Below are positions 596 to 63,021 of a stretch of DNA of 64,000 bases, piece after piece. The notes below the pieces were generated by a model. That model had not been told where the DNA came from and searched no databases. It saw nothing but the letters and a program-made list of their open reading frames with translations. This DNA is from Patescibacteria group bacterium. GTDB lineage: Bacteria > Patescibacteriota > Microgenomatia > UBA1406 > GWC2-37-13. The first letter of the stretch is position 1. Each line of letters starts with the position of its first letter. Location of the stretch: contig BPJE01000002.1 of NCBI GenBank assembly GCA_026004455.1, forward strand, positions 5,207 through 69,206, read 5' to 3'. The translations under genes and the position numbers were made by a program.

Positions 596-614
596 AGTGA
601 TTTAGAAGATTTAC

Positions 615-1547
615 TCACTCAAAAAGCAGATTGTCAAATATTTTTCTTGCAGTTTCTTTAACAAACATATTTTCAGTCGCTCCTATAACTCTTACTTCGT
701 AAATATATTTAGGTGTCGTAAACATTGTGTATTGGGCAACATTAATAATTAGTTTACCTCCTGAATTAGGATAATATTCAGACACACTGAGGTCATATAC
801 TTTTTTATTCCACCTGTTAACTTCGCTAAACGAGTTAATAACATATGCTGATGCTTCCATCTCTTTTTCCTCAGCAATATTGTTAAACGATTGGAGCTTA
901 TTTTGTAATAAATCTAACATAGTTAAATTGGTTAGATTATTTGAATTCGGAATACAACTAACTACAACAGCGGATGAAATATAGCCGCTAGCTTCTTCAA
1001 TTGTGGCATACATTGCTGCAGCCTGTTTATGTTCTTGATGGTCTGTAATTAGTTTTGAAAGTAAGTTTGGGTATACTCCACCACGAGGAAAATCCCAAAA
1101 TCTTCCAATATCATCATCGTTATTTAAAGACGGCTGTCTGTTTGAGTCAACTGAAATATAATAAGGTTTTTCTTTAGGAGGAATTGGAAATTTTACTCCA
1201 CATTTACCATTACTTTTGTATATCCACCCGATAGGTAAAGTAGTTACTGGTTGTACTGAAGGTGTTATTGACGGAATATTCTTTTGTGTAGGATTATTAG
1301 AAACAACTAAAGTAGTTGAAGTTCTTTGTTGAATAATTTTGGTTGTAGATTGATTTTTTTTTGTACCTAAATAGTAGCTAACTAATCCAACTAAAACAAT
1401 AACAAAAATAATACTAATAATTATTGGCAGATTAATCTTAGGAACATTAATCGGAGAACTTATGGTCTTGTTTTCTTCAGGAATAGACTGAAAGGATGGT
1501 GTTTGAATTGGATGAGTTGTTTGAACAATATTATCTGTATTATTCAT
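615..1547 (-). CDS. hypothetical protein: N-terminal TM anchor, Ser/Thr/Pro-rich linker, globular C-domain
   Basis: Uninterrupted ORF 615..1661. First ATG at 1547 (MNNTDNIV). Hydrophobic segment INLPIIISIIFVIVLVGLVSYYLG. No family recognised. Confidence 0.6.
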   Translation of the reverse strand: MNNTDNIVQTTHPIQTPSFQSIPEENKTISSPINVPKINLPIIISIIFVIVLVGLVSYYLGTKKNQSTTKIIQQRTSTTLVVSNNPTQKNIPSITPSVQPVTTLPIGWIYKSNGKCGVKFPIPPKEKPYYISVDSNRQPSLNNDDDIGRFWDFPRGGVYPNLLSKLITDHQEHKQAAAMYATIEEASGYISSAVVVSCIPNSNNLTNLTMLDLLQNKLQSFNNIAEEKEMEASAYVINSFSEVNRWNKKVYDLSVSEYYPNSGGKLIINVAQYTMFTTPKYIYEVRVIGATENMFVKETARKIFDNLLFE

Positions 1548-53561: not shown

Positions 53562-54932
53562 TTACCGATAATATTCCAAACTCAACCCCCTAAAATTAAC
53601 TGAAGACAACTGATTTTTTCCTTGAAGTTGTAAACATTTTTTATAATCAACTCCCCAAATCTCAGCTTTATAAGGAATAACATAGATTTTTTCATTATTT
53701 AAAAAAATGTCGCGATCGCAAAGATTTTTTAAAGAGATAACTTTTATTTTTTTATCATAATAAATCAATGGGTCAAAAGAAGAAGTGATCATGTAGATTT
53801 TTTTAATTTTATTTTTTTGCAAATAAGAAGCTAAACTTTTCCAATCTTCCCGATGAAAATAGGGAATAAATAAATAAACAAATGAGAAAAAAATAAAAAT
53901 AAATAAAATATACAAATTAAATTTTTCTTTAGTAAAAACTGTTATATAACTTAAATAAATCACAAAAAAAGGCAAAAGATATAAAAATTTAAAATAATTA
54001 AGCATTGGTACAAAAATTGAAAATAAAAATCCAAGAATTATTGGAAAAATTAAAAAAAATAAAATCAACTTAATATTTTTTTTATCAAAACCAGCCTTTT
54101 GATAATAAAAATCATAATAATTTTTTATCACATCAACAAAAAAAATTAATGTAAAAATAACTGCTCCCCAATAAAAATATTTTGGATAAAAACTAATTCT
54201 ACCTATGATAAATTTTATTGGTACAAGAAGAAGATTTTTAATATTGACATTTCCTAAAACTAGTGACCAATTTAAAACTTGTTTTAAAGATATAGAAGCA
54301 TTAATTAACTGTTTAAAAAGAAGTGGCAAAATTAAAAAAGAAAAACTAACAAAAAAAATAAAAGTCACTTGAAAAAAATATTTTTTCTTTTTTAACAAAA
54401 AATAAATTAAATAACCTATTATTAAAAAAATTGATCCATAAAAACTAAAAAAACTCAAAATTAAAAATAAATTAAAAAAAATAAGATCTTTTGAAAAATG
54501 ATTGTTTCTTAATTTTAAAAAATAATAGAAACTAGTAGTGATAAAAAAAGTTGTCATCATATACATTCTTGCCTCTTGTGAATAATAAACAATTAGAGGA
54601 TTAAATAAAAATAAAATTGCTGACCAAAAACCAAGCTTTTTATCTTTTAAAATTTTTCCAATTTTATAAATAACAATTGCTGTCATTAAACTAAAAATTA
54701 CTGATGGCATTCTTAAAGATATCTCTGAAAATCCAAAAAAACTTGTCCATAATTTCATAAATAAGTAATACAAAGGCGGATGAAAATCAAAAGGAGAAAA
54801 TTTACTAATAATCTCAAAAAAATTATATTGACTAACAACTCGAGCAACAATTGCCTCATCTAACCATAAAGATTGATTTAAAGACATTAGCCTTATTAAA
54901 AAAGCAAAAATAAAAATTAAAAATATACTCAT
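53562..54932 (-). CDS. multi-pass membrane glycosyltransferase, GT-C fold (GT39/ArnT-like)
   Basis: LWLDEAIVA loop motif after TM1, more than 10 TM helices, and a small C-terminal soluble domain. Confidence 0.55.
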   Translation of the reverse strand: MSIFLIFIFAFLIRLMSLNQSLWLDEAIVARVVSQYNFFEIISKFSPFDFHPPLYYLFMKLWTSFFGFSEISLRMPSVIFSLMTAIVIYKIGKILKDKKLGFWSAILFLFNPLIVYYSQEARMYMMTTFFITTSFYYFLKLRNNHFSKDLIFFNLFLILSFFSFYGSIFLIIGYLIYFLLKKKKYFFQVTFIFFVSFSFLILPLLFKQLINASISLKQVLNWSLVLGNVNIKNLLLVPIKFIIGRISFYPKYFYWGAVIFTLIFFVDVIKNYYDFYYQKAGFDKKNIKLILFFLIFPIILGFLFSIFVPMLNYFKFLYLLPFFVIYLSYITVFTKEKFNLYILFIFIFFSFVYLFIPYFHREDWKSLASYLQKNKIKKIYMITSSFDPLIYYDKKIKVISLKNLCDRDIFLNNEKIYVIPYKAEIWGVDYKKCLQLQGKNQLSSVNFRGLSLEYYR

Positions 54933-55015
54933 AAAAACATTTTACATGATTTTAAATTAAATTAAAAACAGTTGAATTCTAAAGATTAATATTTTATATT
55001 TTATATTTGATATTT

Positions 55016-55033
55016 GTCCGCCAGCTGGCGGAT
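55016..55033. repeat. GC palindrome GTCCGCCAGCTGGCGGAT (copy 3), 3 nt upstream of tRNA-Gly
   Basis: Read directly. Its flanks (ATATTTGATATTTG) resemble the copy at 30988. Confidence 0.8.
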
Positions 55034-55036
55034 TTG

Positions 55037-55107
55037 GCGGGATTAGTTGATCGGCTCAATGTCTGCTTTCCAAGCAGAAGAGACGGGTTCGACTCCCGTA
55101 TCCCGCT
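55037..55107 (+). tRNA. tRNA-Gly (anticodon TCC)
   Basis: Acceptor GCGGGAT/ATCCCGC, anticodon stem TCTGC/GCAGA with loop TTTCCAA, T-arm ACGGG-TTCGACT-CCCGT. CCA is not encoded. Confidence 0.88.
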
Positions 55108-55862
55108 CATTTTTTTAGTTGAAGATAGATTTTTTGACTTTCCTCAAACTCTTCTTTTGTATTTATTCCAATACCAACTGAAGAAAAGGGGACCTCAACG
55201 GCAATAACTTTTTCATTATTTTTTACTGCTATTTCCACTAAACTATTGATATAGTATTCCTTTGAAACTGGTGATCGAGGAATTTTTTTAATATTTTTTA
55301 ATAAAAATTCAAAATCAAAACAATAAAATCCAGCATTAAGCTCAGTAATATTTTTTCTAATTTCATCACTAGCATCTTTATATTCAACACTTCCAATAAC
55401 ATTATTTTTTTTATCCCTTAAAATATATCCCCAATGATATTTATCATTATTCTTGCTTTTAACAGTAATTAAAGACATTTTTGCTTGATTTTTTTTATGC
55501 TCTCTTATCAATTTCTCAATATCTTCTTTTTTATAAAACATCGTATGATCACCATAACCAACTAAAATAATCTCTGGTTTTAAATTTAAATTTTTAATTT
55601 CATTTAGAGCAACTTTAACCGCATGGCCAGTACCCAATCTTTTTTTTTGATAAGCAAAAAATACTTGTTTACCTTCCAAAACTTTTTTAACACTTTCATG
55701 AAAGGCACCAATGACAACTAATATCTTATCAACAATTTTTTCCATTAAATCAATTGAGTAAAGAATTAAAGGTTTATTCAAAAAAGGTAAAGTAACCTTA
55801 TTAGTTTTTTTTGATTTTAACCTTGTCCCTTTTCCCGCTGCCAAAATTATTCCAATTATCAT
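55107..55862 (-). CDS. sugar-phosphate nucleotidyltransferase (GlmU N-terminal domain-like)
   Basis: MIIGIILAAGKGTRLKS, LGTGHAV, GYGDHTM. Confidence 0.75.
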   Translation of the reverse strand: MIIGIILAAGKGTRLKSKKTNKVTLPFLNKPLILYSIDLMEKIVDKILVVIGAFHESVKKVLEGKQVFFAYQKKRLGTGHAVKVALNEIKNLNLKPEIILVGYGDHTMFYKKEDIEKLIREHKKNQAKMSLITVKSKNNDKYHWGYILRDKKNNVIGSVEYKDASDEIRKNITELNAGFYCFDFEFLLKNIKKIPRSPVSKEYYINSLVEIAVKNNEKVIAVEVPFSSVGIGINTKEEFEESQKIYLQLKK

Positions 55863-55873
55863 AAAATTAGATT

Positions 55874-55908
55874 AAGGAAAGAATCTTTTTAAAAAAGGTT
55901 CTGTCCTT
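55874..55908. repeat. GGACAGAACC-type hairpin (degenerate left arm)
   Basis: AAGGAAAGAATC-TTTTTAAAAAA-GGTTCTGTCCTT. Confidence 0.65.
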
Positions 55909-55927
55909 ATTATTTAAATTGTTAATT

Positions 55928-56932
55928 TTATCTTTCCCAACCATTGGGATGTTTAGTATACCATTTAATCAACGATACAATTGAGTCTTCAATTTTTCTT
56001 TTTGGTATCCATCCCAAAACTTTTTTTGCTTTTTTAATATCAGCATATATCTTTGCATATTCTCCTTGACGAGGAGTAGTTTTTTTTAACTCAAATTTTT
56101 TTCCTGTTACTTCTTGAACTTTATTAACAATTTCTAAAACTGAGTTTCCAGTTCCTGTTCCTAAATTTATTATCTCTTTAAAATTACTTTCGATTAATTT
56201 TTCAACCGCTTTCAAATGGGCATCATTTAAATCAACAACATTAATATAATCTCGAATTGGTGTTTTGTCAGGAGTATCAACTTCAGGACAAGTTAAATAA
56301 AAAGGTTCAATACCCAAAGCCCCTCGAACAGCATTTTGAACCAATAAAACCGAAGGTTTTTTTGAATCACCAATTAAACCATCATCAGCAGCGCCACAAA
56401 CATTAAAATAACGAAGAATAAAATAATTTAAATCATAAATTTTTCCATACCATTCAATTATTTTTTCAGCCATTCTTTTGGAGACACCATAAGGATTAAT
56501 TGGATTTGTCTTATGATTTTCATCAACAGGTACATATTCTGTTTCACCATAAACAGCGCAAGTTGAAGAAAAAACTAATTTTTTTATACTAAACTTTTTC
56601 ATTGTTTCCAATAAATTCAAAGAGCTATTAACATTGTTATTAAAATACTTATAAGGATTTTTCATTGACTCATCAACCAAACAAGATGCTGCATAATGAA
56701 CAACTACCTCAATATCTTTTTCTTTTTCAAAAACCTCAGTTAAATCAGTTTTTAAATCTTTTTCATAAAAAACAAAATTTTCTCCATATTTTTCTTTTAA
56801 AATCTCAATTGGTTGGCGATATCCTGTTTGAAAATTATCAATTCCAACCACTTGAAAATTATTTTTTAAAAATAAATCAGCAGCAATTGAACCAATATAT
56901 CCACCAACTCCAGTAATTAAAACTTTTTTCAT
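55928..56932 (-). CDS. galE: UDP-glucose 4-epimerase
   Basis: VLITGVGGYIGS, SSTCAVYG, YGVSKRMAE, RYFNVCGA. Confidence 0.9.
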   Translation of the reverse strand: MKKVLITGVGGYIGSIAADLFLKNNFQVVGIDNFQTGYRQPIEILKEKYGENFVFYEKDLKTDLTEVFEKEKDIEVVVHYAASCLVDESMKNPYKYFNNNVNSSLNLLETMKKFSIKKLVFSSTCAVYGETEYVPVDENHKTNPINPYGVSKRMAEKIIEWYGKIYDLNYFILRYFNVCGAADDGLIGDSKKPSVLLVQNAVRGALGIEPFYLTCPEVDTPDKTPIRDYINVVDLNDAHLKAVEKLIESNFKEIINLGTGTGNSVLEIVNKVQEVTGKKFELKKTTPRQGEYAKIYADIKKAKKVLGWIPKRKIEDSIVSLIKWYTKHPNGWER

Positions 56933-56996
56933 ATTTATTTAAAAAAACTATTAATAAATTTTTTAACTATTTTTAACTATTTAAAACTATTTATAA

Positions 56997-57905
56997 CTAT
57001 TTATAACTATTTATAACTTTCTTTATCGGGTGCCAATGAACTCGATTTTCCGCTAAATAAATTCCTCCAAAAACAAAAATGCTTCCTAAAATATACCAAA
57101 AATTAGGCAACTCTCCAAGTAAAGGATAAGCAATAATTACCGCAACTACTGGATCAATATAAGTAAAAATACCAACTTCTTGTCCTTCTAATTTTGAAAT
57201 TCCGTAATAATACAAAAAATAAGCAATTGCTGAAGAAAAGAAAACTCCATAAATTATTCCCACCCAACCATTAATGGTTAATTGAGAAAATGACCAACTA
57301 GATAACTCTGAAGGGACAAAAATTAAAAATAATAAACTTGACAATAAAAAAGAAAATGCCGAAACAAAATAAGGGTTAACTTTTTTTAATAAATCTTTAC
57401 CAATTAAAGTTTGAATTACAGTTCCTAAAGTTGCCAAAACAATAAAAAAATTTCCTTCAATCTCACCAAATAAAATTTTTTTTCCATCAAAAAAAAGGGG
57501 GTAGAGAACTATTGTCAAAACACCAATTAAAGATATTATCATTCCGGCAAATACTTTTAGTTTTGGTTTTTCTTTTAAAAACAAAATTGAAAAAATATAT
57601 AAAAAAACTGGTCCTGATGAAGCAATAATTGGCACATTAATACTTTCAGTTTTTTTAAGTCCTAAGAAAAAAAAGGTAATATTGATAAATATTCCAAAAA
57701 AACCAACTAAAAAAATCTCTATCCATCTTTTAAAATTTATTTTTTGAAAATTTTTTAAAGCAATTGGTAAAAAAATTAATCCAGCAAAGAAAAATCTAAT
57801 AAAAGCTAAAGTAAAAGGTGGAATATTTTCTAAAGCAAATTTAAAAATTGGCGATGCACCTCCCCAGATAATATTAGTGATAATTAATGCTAAAATAGGA
57901 TTCAT
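56997..57905 (-). CDS. EamA/DMT-family transporter
   Basis: 10 TM helices and two EamA-like halves. Confidence 0.7.
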   Translation of the reverse strand: MNPILALIITNIIWGGASPIFKFALENIPPFTLAFIRFFFAGLIFLPIALKNFQKINFKRWIEIFLVGFFGIFINITFFFLGLKKTESINVPIIASSGPVFLYIFSILFLKEKPKLKVFAGMIISLIGVLTIVLYPLFFDGKKILFGEIEGNFFIVLATLGTVIQTLIGKDLLKKVNPYFVSAFSFLLSSLLFLIFVPSELSSWSFSQLTINGWVGIIYGVFFSSAIAYFLYYYGISKLEGQEVGIFTYIDPVVAVIIAYPLLGELPNFWYILGSIFVFGGIYLAENRVHWHPIKKVINSYK

Positions 57906-57906
57906 A

Positions 57907-58803
57907 CTAGTTTTTATTTTTTTTATTTAAATAAACAATTAATTCGCCAATTATTCCTGTTGATAAAATTTGTATTCCAACAACTACTAATAAAATTCCA
58001 AGCCACAAAATTGGTCTTCGATAAAGAAGCATATTATGAAAAATTCTTTCAAAACCCAGATATCCTAAAATTAAAAAACCTAAAAGCGATATTATTCCAC
58101 CAATCATTCCAAAAAAATGAAGTGGTCTTTCAGAAAATTTGTATAAAAATATCGCTGTTAATACATCAAAAATACCAACAAATATTTTTTTTGGACCAAA
58201 TTTTGATTTTCCAAAACGTCGAGGATTATTAATTACTGGTACCTCAGCAACCTTAAATCCTTGATAATAAACAAAAAGCGGAAAAAATCGAAAATTATTT
58301 CCATAAAAGACAAAGTCTTTGGTGACTTCTTTTTTAAAAGCTTTAAATCCACAATTAATATCAGTAAAAGGAGAATTTAAGATTTTTTTCAAAACTAATC
58401 CAGCTAATTTTGAATAAATTTTCACCAAAAAATTTTCTTTTCTTTCCATTCTTACACCATTAACAAAATCATAACCTTCATCTATTTTTTTTAAAAATTT
58501 AGACCAATCTTTTGGATCATCTTGTAAATCTGCATCCATAAAAATAATTATTTCACCTGATGCATTTTCAACACCAGTTTTCAAAGCCTCTCCTTTTCCT
58601 AACTTTTTCTTATGTTTTATTAATTTAATATTTTTATTTTTTTGAAAACTGAAAATTGAAAACTGAAAACTATCAGTGCTTCCATCATCAACTAAAACAA
58701 TCTCATAATCTTTTTTAATTTTTTTAAATTCTTTAATCAGCAAATCCAAAAGAATCGGCAAATTTTCTTTTTCATTATGAAATGGTATAACAATAGAAAT
58801 CAT
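57907..58803 (-). CDS. family 2 glycosyltransferase (polyprenol-phosphate glycosyltransferase, ArnC/DPM-like) with C-terminal TM helices
   Basis: ISIVIPFHNEKENL, VLVDDGSTD, FMDADLQDDP. The repeat-derived SFQFSIFSFQKNKN segment lies at 58641..58670. Confidence 0.8.
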   Translation of the reverse strand: MISIVIPFHNEKENLPILLDLLIKEFKKIKKDYEIVLVDDGSTDSFQFSIFSFQKNKNIKLIKHKKKLGKGEALKTGVENASGEIIIFMDADLQDDPKDWSKFLKKIDEGYDFVNGVRMERKENFLVKIYSKLAGLVLKKILNSPFTDINCGFKAFKKEVTKDFVFYGNNFRFFPLFVYYQGFKVAEVPVINNPRRFGKSKFGPKKIFVGIFDVLTAIFLYKFSERPLHFFGMIGGIISLLGFLILGYLGFERIFHNMLLYRRPILWLGILLVVVGIQILSTGIIGELIVYLNKKNKN

Positions 58804-58814
58804 TTTTAAATTTT

Positions 58815-60272
58815 TTAATTTTTAATTTTCTTATACACCTCAACACTTCCTCCATATCTATCATTTAAATTATCTGAATAAATCATCTGAAAATTTTTAT
58901 CTTCTAATAATTTTTGATAAAACTTTACTGATAAACTACCTTTACTTAAATCACCAATCTCTTTTTTATAAATTATCACATAATCAGCTTTTTTATATTT
59001 ATCCGACCTATTTATTATATCATCTTCAATTTCACCAATCTCACCAAACGCTGGATCAAATAAAAAATTAAAATATTGTTTTCTATTAGTAAAAAATGGC
59101 GCTAATTTTGGAGTGGTGGCAACAATAATATTTTCATCTTTTAATTTTTCCTGCCAAAGCTTGATTGATTGTTTAGTCAATGGATGAATTTCTTGAAACT
59201 CAACTTTTTGTTTTCCAAAAAAAGTTAATGGATTATATAGATAAATTGAATAAATATTTAACAAAATAAAAATTGTTAAAATTATTAATCTAATTTTTTT
59301 ACTTTTAACAATTTTTAAAAATCTTTGAAAACCATAAATAACAGCAATAAATAAAAAAACGACAATAATTGCATGATAATGAAAATATATTGCCCTCATG
59401 TTATTATTAAGACTCAAAATATTGATTCCCCATTCAGGAGCAGCAATTAAAAAAATCTCTGGTGCTAAAAGTGAAAAAAATAATGGATTAACTAATCTTA
59501 AAAAATATTCATATCCGTTAGAAATAATTGTTGGCAGACGCGACTTAATGTTTGAAAAATAATTACTAGCAAAATGTTTATCACCACGAAAATAGGGGAT
59601 AATAAAATAAGTAGTTGTTAAGAAAAAAATTAATCCTAAAAAAATTGTTATTAAACCATGTTTTTTTTCTTTTTTAACAATAAAAATATAAATTCCTAAA
59701 AACAAAACAATTAAACCGATATGCTCTTTAGTCAACAATGATAAAACAACAAAAACATAAAACCAGCGCCAATTTTTGATCTCTAAAAAATAAAAAGCAG
59801 CGATAAAAAAAGTTGTTGCTAAAACAACTGCATGAAAATCAAAAAGAATCATTCTTTCAATGGCAAAATAAGATAAATAAGTGACTGAAATTAAAAAACT
59901 ATAAAAATCATTTTTAATAATTTTTTTTGCTAATAAAAATAAAAAAACACTTCCTAAAGAAATAATTATTACTTGAAAGATGATTAACCAAATATATGAT
60001 GGGTAAATAAAATAAAAAGGTGCAAAAAAGATTAGAATCGGATCAAAATGAATTGCCAATCGCGACATGTTTTTTAAAAAAGTTGGATTAGTCATCTCTA
60101 AAATTCTTCCTCGTGAAGTATTGTAAACTACTTGATTCATAATTCCTAAATCATAATAATGCGAATTTAAAGTCTCCACTCTTCTTATTGCTAAATAAGA
60201 AAAATAAAAAATAAAAATAATGTTTAACAAAAATAAAGATAAAAAAATAATTTTTGATTTTTTTCCTATCAT
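58815..60272 (-). CDS. DUF2079-family integral membrane protein (putative GT-C glycosyltransferase)
   Basis: YDLGIMNQVVYNTSRGRILEMTNP motif after TM1, followed by many TM helices. Confidence 0.6.
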   Translation of the reverse strand: MIGKKSKIIFLSLFLLNIIFIFYFSYLAIRRVETLNSHYYDLGIMNQVVYNTSRGRILEMTNPTFLKNMSRLAIHFDPILIFFAPFYFIYPSYIWLIIFQVIIISLGSVFLFLLAKKIIKNDFYSFLISVTYLSYFAIERMILFDFHAVVLATTFFIAAFYFLEIKNWRWFYVFVVLSLLTKEHIGLIVLFLGIYIFIVKKEKKHGLITIFLGLIFFLTTTYFIIPYFRGDKHFASNYFSNIKSRLPTIISNGYEYFLRLVNPLFFSLLAPEIFLIAAPEWGINILSLNNNMRAIYFHYHAIIVVFLFIAVIYGFQRFLKIVKSKKIRLIILTIFILLNIYSIYLYNPLTFFGKQKVEFQEIHPLTKQSIKLWQEKLKDENIIVATTPKLAPFFTNRKQYFNFLFDPAFGEIGEIEDDIINRSDKYKKADYVIIYKKEIGDLSKGSLSVKFYQKLLEDKNFQMIYSDNLNDRYGGSVEVYKKIKN

Positions 60273-60301: not shown

Positions 60302-62566
60302 TTATTTGTTTCCCGAATGAAACTTTTCATGAATCTCTTTTAATCTCGTATTAGTCACATGAGTGTAAATCTGAGTGGTTGAGATATTTTTATGTCCCAA
60401 CATCTCCTGTACACTTCGCAAATCAGCCCCATGTGACAATAAATCTGTTGCAAATGAATTATGGCTTATAATGCCATCAGTTATTAAATTATGATTTTTT
60501 TCAACATAAAAATCGTATACAGTATATTGAGAGGATCCTAATTTTGTTTTTGACTTAACTTTTAAGAATTTTATATTTCTTAAGTTTGCTAATTTATAGT
60601 ATTCTAAATATTGTTTATCATTAATTACTCCTAATTTCTTAAATCCCTTTATTATTTTTATAAACGTACTTTCGGTAGGCATTAAATTTTCACAATAACG
60701 AACTATATCTTTAATTTTCATTTTTTCGAAAGTTTTACTATATTGTATTTTATTTAATTTCGCTTTCTCAATTAAATTAGAAATTATTTGATTAAAAGGT
60801 AGTTTAGTATAATCATCTTTTATCTTTTTACTTATTATAATTGTTTCATTTTTTAAAGTAGGTATAAACTTTTTAAAAGTTATAATACTTTTTTTATCTA
60901 AAATTACTAACTCATAAATTCTACTTGAATAAATTTCTTGATTATGAGGTAAGATAGTATTTCTTTTTCTTTTTTCAAGGTGACTATCAATTCCAAAATA
61001 AAGAAGAAGCATTTGAATTTGTTTTAGCAATAAAAAAGATGATGAAAAAAATCGAGGATTTTCAGTCTTAGTTAATCCCTCCGCATCATAAAATCCAGCA
61101 ATAAAATATCTTATTTCTTCTTTTGTTGCATTAAATATTTTTTTGGGAATTAGTTTTTCTTTTGCTTTTTTATTGAAATCAATTAGTTCATGAAAAAATT
61201 CAACTAACTCTTTTGAATAAAAAACCAATTGAAATGAATTTGAGTTGGGACTTTTTAAAATTTTTCCTTTTTTTCCAAAAAGACTCTCTATTAAATCAAG
61301 ATAATATTCTAAAATATTTTTATTTTTATCAAAAATAAAAATACCTCTTCTTAACTTATTAACAACGCCATCACCAAGAACATAACCAACTATTCTCCAT
61401 AATCTTTTATCTAAGGTTTTTTTACCTTTGTGAGGAATAATTTTAGGAGCAATAAGATTTTCACCAATTTGTATATCTTTTGCTTTTTTTTCAACAAAAC
61501 TTTCGTTGTCAAAAATATATAAAAGATGATTACCAGAACATTTTATCTCATACCCATCAGCAAAAATTGAATAAAGATAAGTATTATGGGTTGATTTTAA
61601 AATAATTTTATCTTTGACAATTTTTTTATTTTTAAAATCCAAAGAATAAATTCCATTTTCTAAGCTAAAATAAAGTTCACGAGCTGATATTAAACCATCT
61701 TTAGTAAAAATTAAAGTTTCTGGATGCAAACAATGTCTTAAAACATGCGGTCCAAATCTAAATAAAATTCCTGCTTTTTTTCGATATTTATCAATCATTC
61801 GCTCAACTGATCTTACTGACAATCTCATTTTTTCATTGGTTAATCCCTCTTTTGCCTTTGGCCCAGAGTAACGAATAAAAAGAGGAGAGTAGGGATCATC
61901 TCTTTTGTCTAAATATTTTTTAAGCCATTCTTTAGCTCGCTTAGATAAAAATACCACCCTTGCTTTTCCTCCTTTTCCAATTACCCCAAACTCACCAGTT
62001 TCAATATTGACTTGCTCTCGATTTAAATTAACAAGCTCTGAAACTCGAAGACCAGTAGAAAATAATACTTCTAAAATCGCTCTGTCTCGCAAACCAATGA
62101 TATCAGAAATATCTACTACATTAAATAGTTTTTCTAATTCTTCAGGAAGTAAAAATTTTATTGATCTATCTCTTTGTTTTCCAAGCTCTATCATCTCGGG
62201 AGGTAAAACCTTTAATTTTTGCTTTATCAAATATCTAAAAAAACTTCTTAACGCCACCAAAAAATAATTTTGTGTTTGTCTTTTTAACTCACCTTTATAA
62301 GGATTTTTATAATAATGTGAAAGATAAAGCCTAAACTCTCTGATCGTATTCTCATCAATCTCCTCAACATTTATTAAATTTTGACTTTTGACTTTTAACT
62401 TTTGACTTTTTAATATCCATTCTTTAAAAAAATTTAAATAATATCCATACATTTTGACTGTTTTTAAGGAAAGGTTTTTATCAAGCTCGCAATATTCTAA
62501 AAATCTTAAAATTGCTTCATTAATATCCATAATTTTAATCTTAAACGACGCTAATGTTTTTTTCAA
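60302..62566 (-). CDS. xerC: Xer-type tyrosine recombinase precursor carrying an intein
   Basis: N-terminal SAM-like domain and [20 protein letters not shown] (Arg box). HVLRH / [34 protein letters not shown] is split by a 425-aa insert. 329 aa remain without it. Confidence 0.9.
60458..61732 (-). mobile_element. intein with a LAGLIDADG homing-endonuclease domain (residues 279..703 of the Xer ORF)
   Basis: Starts at Cys1 (CLHPETLIF), block B-like CSGNHLL, LAGLIDADG motifs [10 protein letters not shown] and [10 protein letters not shown], and ends [21 protein letters not shown] followed by Ser+1. Confidence 0.85.
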
Positions 62567-62911: not shown

Positions 62912-62999
62912 GCCGCAGTGGCGGAATTGGCAGACGCGCAGGGCTTAGGACCCTGTTCCTGTAAAATCAGGAGTAGAGGTTCAACTCCTCTCTGCGGCA
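62912..62999 (+). tRNA. tRNA-Leu (anticodon TAG), long variable arm
   Basis: Acceptor GCCGCAG/CTGCGGC, anticodon stem CAGGG/CCCTG with loop CTTAGGA, variable hairpin CCTG-TAAAAT-CAGG, T-arm AGAGG-TTCAACT-CCTCT. Confidence 0.9.
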
Positions 63000-63021
63000 C
63001 ATTATTTATTTAAAAAATAAA

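Follow-up and report, generated by a model that had tools for sequence, protein, structure and literature searches.

The stretch of DNA analysed here (the window) comprises 64,000 nucleotides of contig BPJE01000002.1 from an ultra-small, Microgenomates/Roizmanbacteria-like Patescibacteria group bacterium, and it carries a gene for an Xer-type tyrosine recombinase that is interrupted in frame by a 425-residue insert with the features of an intein. A sequence-only reading of this DNA had proposed a complete intein at this place, and its coordinates proved exact, as did the length of the insert, its first residues (CLHPETLIF), its His-Asn end and the Ser that follows at position +1. The gene lies in an uninterrupted minus-strand open reading frame (ORF) at 60302..62566 (-), which gives 754 amino acids (aa) when read from a TTG. 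The same reading had taken 754 aa as the size of the product and 329 aa as that of the recombinase; the ORF from the TTG exists, but the real sizes are likely smaller. An ATG is found 12 codons 3' of the TTG, at 62530, where the protein starts with MDINEAIL. Because the homologs and an intein-free ortholog also open with MDI(N/S)EAIL, as does an NCBI protein that is 100% identical to the window precursor (KatS3mg092_0545, 742 aa, from a Patescibacteria metagenome-assembled genome (MAG)), this ATG is most likely the true start, with a precursor of 742 aa, a frame of 2229 nt without interruption and a spliced recombinase (extein) of 317 aa. Residues are numbered on the 742-aa precursor (N-extein 1-266, intein 267-691, C-extein 692-742), in which the insert corresponds to residues 279-703 of the 754-aa ORF. 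The insert ends with ISHN and separates HVLRH from SFATD, i.e. His266 from Ser267 of the spliced recombinase. This is one residue past the second catalytic Arg of the HxxR box, which we take to be position 248/249 in E. coli XerD numbering. The features of the gene and of its surroundings are collected in Table 1.

Table 1. Features of the intein-containing xer gene and its neighbourhood, in window positions (residues in precursor numbering).
Feature	Position	Strand	Basis or remark
Precursor coding sequence, intein-containing Xer-type tyrosine recombinase (probable start)	60302..62530	(-)	742 aa + stop, from ATG at 62530
N-extein, aa 1-266: SAM-like core-binding domain and first part of catalytic domain	61733..62530	(-)	Pfam Phage_int_SAM_1, Phage_integrase positions 1-135; alignment to XerD 1a0p
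Predicted N-extein catalytic residues R148; K186; H262; R265	62087..62089; 61973..61975; 61745..61747; 61736..61738	(-)	
Predicted intein, 425 aa, Cys1 to Asn425	60458..61732	(-)	Pfam and NCBIfam intein models above cut-off
Splicing block A (C267-LHPET...), putative Cys1 nucleophile	61694..61732	(-)	C1 invariant in 120/120 proteins, 64/64 loci
Splicing block B, CSGNHLLY, S/T-x-x-H motif (S332, H335)	61517..61540	(-)	His in 120/120; T position Ser in 86, Thr in 34
LAGLIDADG homing-endonuclease domain, two pseudo-symmetric halves	60863..61420	(-)	Pfam LAGLIDADG_3 in two stretches; Foldseek I-DmoI
LAGLIDADG motif 1, VGYVLG-D387-G (predicted catalytic Asp)	61361..61390	(-)	
LAGLIDADG motif 2, IAGFYDA-E484-G (predicted catalytic Glu)	61073..61102	(-)	
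Helical subdomain, about five helices, ~70 aa, between endonuclease and C-terminal splicing strands	60587..60793	(-)	Secondary structure of AlphaFold2 model
Splicing blocks F (VY-D673-F) and G (SH690-N691, then S692)	60458..60520	(-)	Block F Asp, His and Asn invariant in 120/120; intein_Cterm
C-extein, 51 aa, opening with putative Ser+1 nucleophile (60455..60457)	60305..60457	(-)	
Predicted C-extein catalytic residues H713; Tyr722	60392..60394; 60365..60367	(-)	XerD alignment; invariant in homologs
Six downstream synteny-marker genes, outside the element: DUF2079, GT2, EamA-like, epimerase, NTP-transferase, PMT_2	53562..60272	(-)	Collinear with the intein-free locus L001

Removal of the insert in silico restored a complete recombinase. 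The Pfam Phage_integrase match, which is split in the precursor (first part at ORF residues 137-279, the rest past the insert), became continuous with 151 bits, and the spliced extein aligned along its full length with XerD of E. coli (1a0p, E 4e-41) and XerA of P. abyssi (4a8e). The alignment was gap-free at the junction, and the HxLRH-SFAT catalytic box that the sequence-only reading had seen re-formed there is identical to the box of an intein-free ortholog described below (P0121, locus L001). The spliced protein has the R148, K186, H262, R265, H713 and Y722 of tyrosine recombinases together with their two-domain architecture, SAM-like and catalytic. We class the extein as an Xer-type recombinase and assign it to no named Xer subfamily, because it did not reach the equivalog cut-offs for XerD (244.3, cut-off 329.6), XerC (244.3, cut-off 335.15) or XerA_Arch (215.5, cut-off 220). 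It is a syntenic chromosomal gene of the housekeeping type, and homology and the conserved context suggest a putative role in dimer resolution at dif sites. In the databases, such ~740-aa proteins are called "tyrosine-type recombinase/integrase" or "hypothetical" by gene callers.

The insert itself matched models of both the splicing domain and the endonuclease, all above their curated cut-offs: Pfam Intein_splicing (PF14890) with 67-69 bits (cut-off 35.8), Pfam LAGLIDADG_3 (PF14528) with 61-62 bits in two stretches (cut-off 22.5), NCBIfam intein_Nterm (TIGR01445) with 33-35 bits (cut-off 24.5) and NCBIfam intein_Cterm (TIGR01443) with 26-28 bits (cut-off 15.6). The Hint N/C and LAGLIDADG domains expected by the sequence-only reading are borne out by these matches, and both of its LAGLIDADG motifs were located. 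With a Hint domain, Cys1, His-Asn, Ser+1 and an in-frame position, the insert is very probably a canonical class-1 intein with an embedded double-motif LAGLIDADG endonuclease, and it is predicted to splice. It is more AT-rich than its host (GC content of 22.4% versus 29-35% in the exteins, and 11% versus 23% at third codon positions). Hidden Markov models of the intein family and of the extein were also run against the six-frame translation of the window and found only this ORF, with no other intein of this kind and no second Xer-like gene.

Searched as a single sequence against the PDB with phmmer, the intein gave no match at E 0.01. A profile built from 115 family members matched an archaeal VMA intein (7qsu, 1e-14) and PI-PfuI (1dq3, 2e-14, over 362 positions) as well as the TFIIB, CDC21, PI-PkoII, RadA and DnaB inteins. 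An AlphaFold2 model of the precursor, made from the same 115-member alignment, had a mean predicted local distance difference test score (pLDDT) of 86, with most of the intein above 90. In a Foldseek search this model retrieved the TliVMA intein (E 9e-22, target template-modelling (TM) score 0.70), PI-PfuI (1e-18), PI-PkoII and PI-SceI (E 2e-10); the endonuclease core retrieved I-DmoI (target TM 0.62-0.73), and the exteins retrieved XerA and XerD. The link to solved inteins thus comes only from the profile of the family and from the comparison of folds, and not from a single-sequence search. The helical subdomain that precedes the C-terminal splicing strands had no match to a Pfam family and varies more than any other part of the intein (on average 28% identity to the window among the family). 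The PI-PfuI profile alignment extends across it, and by analogy with the extra domains of PI-PfuI and PI-PkoII it is possibly an accessory DNA-binding region. An HTH_3 domain was seen in 8 of 38 related inteins of other hosts, which again would suit an accessory DNA-binding module.

A search with the full-length protein found at least 200 clusters (at the 90% identity level) at E <= 1e-10. Conservation was counted in the best 120 of these (644-770 aa, 40-71% identical to the window protein), all of which carry the recombinase and intein domains with the insertion point at the identical position. Roizman-, Woese- and Gottesmanbacteria, Kazan, Saccharibacteria and Parcubacteria are among the sources named, and several proteins bear the Joint Genome Institute (JGI) label "site-specific recombinase XerD/intein/homing endonuclease". 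Overall, at least 190 homologs have the intein at this position with every splicing residue invariant, and their bacterial sources are Microgenomates, Parcubacteria, Saccharibacteria, Kazan and Peregrinibacteria. H262, R265, H266, C267, H335, D673, H690, N691 and S692 are invariant in the 120 proteins, and the extein residues R148, K186, H713 and Y722 are likewise invariant in the aligned intein-bearing homologs (115-120). Among the endonuclease acids, D387 is kept in 118 of 120 and position 484 is Glu or Asp in 119 of 120 (both are kept in 117), while K402 and Q506 do not vary at all. In three homologs (P0029, P0065 and P0074) one LAGLIDADG acid is lost (e.g. GYILGNGVV) and all splicing residues are kept; these are candidates for endonuclease-dead, splicing-competent stages of a homing cycle.

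In addition, a junction-specific scan of 185,579 species-representative genomes confirmed 107 loci with the same insertion point. The allele is thus widespread yet a minority. Both junctions were readable in 71 of these loci, with HxxRH/C...HN/S in 66 and HN/C in 5 (a slash marks the splice site), so that homologs with the insert and without Cys1, His-Asn or a Ser or Cys at +1, which would have spoken against an intein, were found neither among the 120 proteins nor among the 71 loci. The five loci with Cys at +1 (L039, L043, L058, L069 and L075, junction at ~4290 in each) read ...SHN/CFATDLL with a TGT or TGC codon; their spliced recombinase would read HxxRH-C-FAT, and a change from TCN to TGY takes a single base. 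At a further locus, L040, the allele is divided between two frames (segments of 596 and 153 aa that start at 2191 and 3959), either by decay or by an assembly error. Many MAGs with the allele are titled "uncultured Gammaproteobacteria" or "Pseudomonadales" (TPA_asm; e.g. L002, L007, L008, L010, L048 and L054), though their Xer exteins cluster with Patescibacteria; these labels look wrong and we did not rely on them.

We also searched with the intein alone in a library of representatives at 50% identity, which gave 2322 relatives at E <= 1e-3 and 26 at E <= 1e-30. Recombinases are the hosts of 25 of these 26, and a Rad51/RadA protein is the host of the remaining one. The next tier of relatives sits in ribonucleotide reductase (RNR), MCM, eRF1 and RadA/RecA. 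The Rad51/RadA protein (P0263, 885 aa, intein from residue 531) holds the closest relative outside recombinases (E 9e-34, 32% identity), and its intein begins with CVHPET, near the CLHPET of the window intein. This likeness hints at the origin of the Xer intein lineage.

The same intein at the same position was also present in XerA genes (L018, L019, L024, L027, L028, L050, L072 and L045). Several loci with the labels Nanoarchaeota, Woesearchaeota, Pacearchaeota, Nitrososphaerota or "archaeon" encode shorter exteins, ~275 aa long, with SFATHLLE. The XerA-type exteins scored 231-275 bits on recomb_XerA_Arch (cut-off 220), and L018, L024, L050, L072 and L045 exceeded the cut-off of this model. 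We considered whether the archaeal loci could be mis-binned contigs of the bacterial Candidate Phyla Radiation (CPR), and rejected this for two of them. The L028 contig encodes L18e (97.9 bits, cut-off 85), an archaeal/eukaryal L13 (113 bits, cut-off 98.9) and an archaeal-type uS9, and the L072 contig encodes an archaeal glutamyl-tRNA synthetase (501 bits, cut-off 402); because these genes share the contigs with the intein, the hosts of L028 and L072 are truly archaeal. L045 is titled Chloroflexi but its extein is XerA-type, which suggests a binning or labelling error. Finally, L047 and L074 carry the intein in short integrase-like proteins with an SFAI motif (SFAINWIK or SFAIHCIK past the junction) that lack the N-terminal SAM-like domain; the L047 extein has ~190 aa, and the start of L074 is uncertain. 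Members of one intein family thus lie at the same point of the catalytic box in at least three lineages of recombinases and in two domains of life.

A search with the spliced extein retrieved intein-free proteins of 305-331 aa with 78-90% identity from Microgenomates and Roizmanbacteria MAGs. The best intein-free ortholog, P0121 (contig BAAHEA010000020, locus L001), shares 90% identity with the window extein at the protein level and 84% at the DNA level. Its xer gene reads through the insertion point with the same junction peptide as the spliced window protein, and the DNA at the empty site is ...CATGTTTTACGACAT/AGTTTTGCAACAGAT... (the slash marks the insertion point). The six genes downstream of xer occur in the same order in the window and in L001, with 71-82% amino-acid identity, so the two loci are a clean comparison of an occupied and an empty allele at one chromosomal position. 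A metagenome retrieval with the intein-free ortholog gave 80 loci, all of them without the intein; it was biased to contiguous matches and hence gives no frequency. No second recombinase adjoined xer in the 80 related loci. The codon for the Ser at +1 is TCA in the window and AGT in L001, i.e. all three bases differ. As a mark of occupancy or immunity this codon was rejected, since TCN is found in 63 of 66 occupied Ser codons and also in 71 of 77 intein-free alleles. Upstream of the window xer lie a tRNA-Leu gene (62912..63000) and a 178-aa ORF, and in L001 a 67-aa ORF with a GIY-YIG domain, a nuclease-type domain, was seen just upstream of the empty-site xer (607..810 (+)).

With this architecture the 742-aa precursor would splice itself in the usual order: an N-S acyl shift at Cys1, trans-esterification to Ser+1, cyclisation of Asn425 and an O-N shift. 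Splicing would join His266 to Ser692 and yield the 317-aa recombinase and a free 425-aa endonuclease. Because the catalytic residues are divided between both exteins, with R148, K186, H262 and R265 on the N-extein and H713 and the nucleophile Y722 on the C-extein, the precursor would be catalytically incompetent, and that the recombinase should become active only after splicing, as the sequence-only reading had held, is a sound inference. The released endonuclease would cut intein-free xer genes at the conserved sequence encoding PHxLRH/SFATDLL, and repair of the break would copy the intein in (homing). The DNA for PHxLRH/SFAT, the putative target, is among the best conserved parts of the superfamily. 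Splicing, cleavage by the endonuclease and its recognition site are predictions, and the support for splicing comes from selection on the splice and active-site residues. Homing would produce a patchy distribution, discordance between intein and extein, and sharing among CPR Xer proteins, archaeal XerA and small integrases.

The distribution of the intein is indeed sporadic. The closest extein relatives of the window protein (78-90% identity) are intein-free, and the most similar protein that carries the intein shares 83% identity in the extein but 61% in the intein. Among the 120 proteins (7140 pairs) the mean identity is 45% for inteins and 54% for exteins, i.e. the inteins diverge faster, and in ~9% of the pairs the inteins are nevertheless more alike than the exteins (at the extreme, 74% for the intein versus 52% for the extein). 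Comparison of XerA-type with CPR-type alleles gave 32% identity for exteins and 40% for inteins, whereas pairs within CPR had 51% and 40%, respectively. In a crude neighbour-joining tree rooted on the RadA intein, the recombinase-hosted inteins formed one clade in which the XerA-hosted ones fell in at least two places. The pattern itself is observed, and we infer mobility from it. The retained endonuclease site and the distribution fit a homing cycle in which the intein invades, descends vertically, at times decays or is lost, and invades again, with transfer between bacteria and archaea included.

Several points weigh against an intein that is still mobile and that keeps its host inactive until spliced. 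Because intein and extein identities correlate (r = 0.74), much of the inheritance must be vertical, and in some lineages homing may have become rare or ceased. The 40% identity of inteins across domains could partly be a floor set by constraint and not a trace of recent transfer. The neighbour-joining tree was built without support values, so its topology is no more than suggestive. Three of the 120 homologs have lost an endonuclease acid. In the AlphaFold2 model the C-extein (pLDDT of 40-50) does not dock onto the catalytic domain, a low-confidence feature of modelling that lends weak support to an inactive precursor and is no proof of it.

Could the intein, then, still splice while its endonuclease is inactive in this lineage? 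It would be a vertical passenger late in the homing cycle, impossible to lose because a deletion that is not exact would ruin an essential motif of the active site. The correlation of identities, the faster evolution of the intein and the three homologs with a lost acid would all suit such a passenger, as would the 61% identity of the window intein to its nearest relative, which gives no sign of a very recent invasion. In contrast, the endonuclease acids, K402 and Q506 are kept in 117-120 of 120 proteins at an overall identity of 40%, which argues for purifying selection on the nuclease. The endonuclease region is 47% identical to the window while the N-terminal splicing region is only 39% identical, the window copy retains every catalytic residue, and the discordant pairs and the sharing across domains likewise speak against a purely vertical passenger. 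We consider an inactive endonuclease possible but doubtful.

Conditional splicing is known for some inteins, e.g. those of RadA, SufB and DnaB. The Xer intein might similarly have been co-opted as a post-translational switch, in which splicing that depends on redox state (via Cys1), temperature, or the binding of DNA or a partner gates Xer and dimer resolution. The position in the catalytic box, the expected inactivity of the precursor and the persistence of the allele across many CPR classes would be in line with a switch. However, the sequence does not demand it and no extra Cys pair is conserved at the junctions. The allele is moreover a small minority (107 hits in 185,579 species representatives) and the closest orthologs do without it, which fits a parasite better, and we regard co-option as very unlikely. 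It would be similarly far-fetched, in our estimate, that in CPR and DPANN episymbionts the intein gates Xer/XerA, and hence dimer resolution and completion of cell division, with its sharing across domains reflecting direct exchange between co-resident episymbionts via the universal homing site. That the gene is a dead recombinase, with a non-splicing insert, a decaying pseudogene or an artefact of metagenome assembly, deserves almost no credence: the window does come from a MAG and the related L040 is in two frames, but the 2229-nt frame is intact, the same architecture was assembled independently in more than 190 sequences from many studies, and the invariance of the extein catalytic and splice residues would not persist in a pseudogene. 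The insert is most likely a splicing-competent, still largely mobile class-1 intein.

Inteins of this build are well represented among solved structures. PI-PfuI (the RNR intein of P. furiosus, 1dq3), TliVMA (7qss) and PhoVMA (7qst) have the same Hint domain split by a double-motif LAGLIDADG endonuclease and an accessory region, and also belong to class 1, with Cys as first residue and His-Asn at the end (target TM 0.60-0.70). They differ in their hosts (RNR or V-ATPase) and in sequence (16-20% identity), and the +1 residue of the window intein is Ser. PI-SceI of yeast VMA1 is the same kind of bifunctional element, splicing and LAGLIDADG, at a conserved catalytic site, and splicing with homing into empty alleles is an established mechanism for it; it shares only ~10% identity, resides in a eukaryotic nuclear host and has demonstrated activity, whereas the activity of the window intein is predicted from sequence. 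The inteins of RecA/RadA, DnaB, MCM and RNR likewise sit in conserved catalytic motifs of enzymes of DNA metabolism. These hosts mainly bind nucleoside triphosphates and have their inteins at P-loops or similar sites, while a tyrosine recombinase transfers phosphoryl groups and needs no nucleotide cofactor, and its intein lies in the HxxR box. On the host side, the closest known systems are XerC/XerD, XerA and the single recombinases XerH and XerS; the spliced extein shares all six catalytic residues and a full-length alignment with XerD and XerA, and we found no intein in any characterised Xer protein.

In the literature covered, to which the supplementary tables of the survey PMC4760082 did not belong, no intein was described in Xer or in any tyrosine recombinase, and the matches were engineered split-intein recombinases or unrelated co-mentions. 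This is consistent with the view of the sequence-only reading that an allele hosted by Xer or an integrase is not known to have been described, but the allele is not rare in databases, where it is present in at least 200 clusters, some of them labelled as such by JGI. The sequences are already public and partly annotated automatically. In mechanism it is a standard intein of the PI-PfuI, VMA and PI-SceI kind; the novelty is the host, and no new principle is involved.

As far as we found, tyrosine site-specific recombinases are a class of host protein new to inteins, and their HxxR box is a new insertion site. The rule that inteins settle in the best conserved catalytic motifs of enzymes of DNA metabolism is thereby extended. 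The endonuclease would represent a new LAGLIDADG specificity, for a sequence that a great many Xer genes contain, and a natural recombinase that requires splicing could be a template for splicing-gated recombinase tools. For the organisms themselves, the identical position in CPR Xer, XerA and small integrases, with inteins that are more alike than their hosts, makes this element a compact marker for the exchange of genes between ultra-small symbionts from Bacteria and Archaea.

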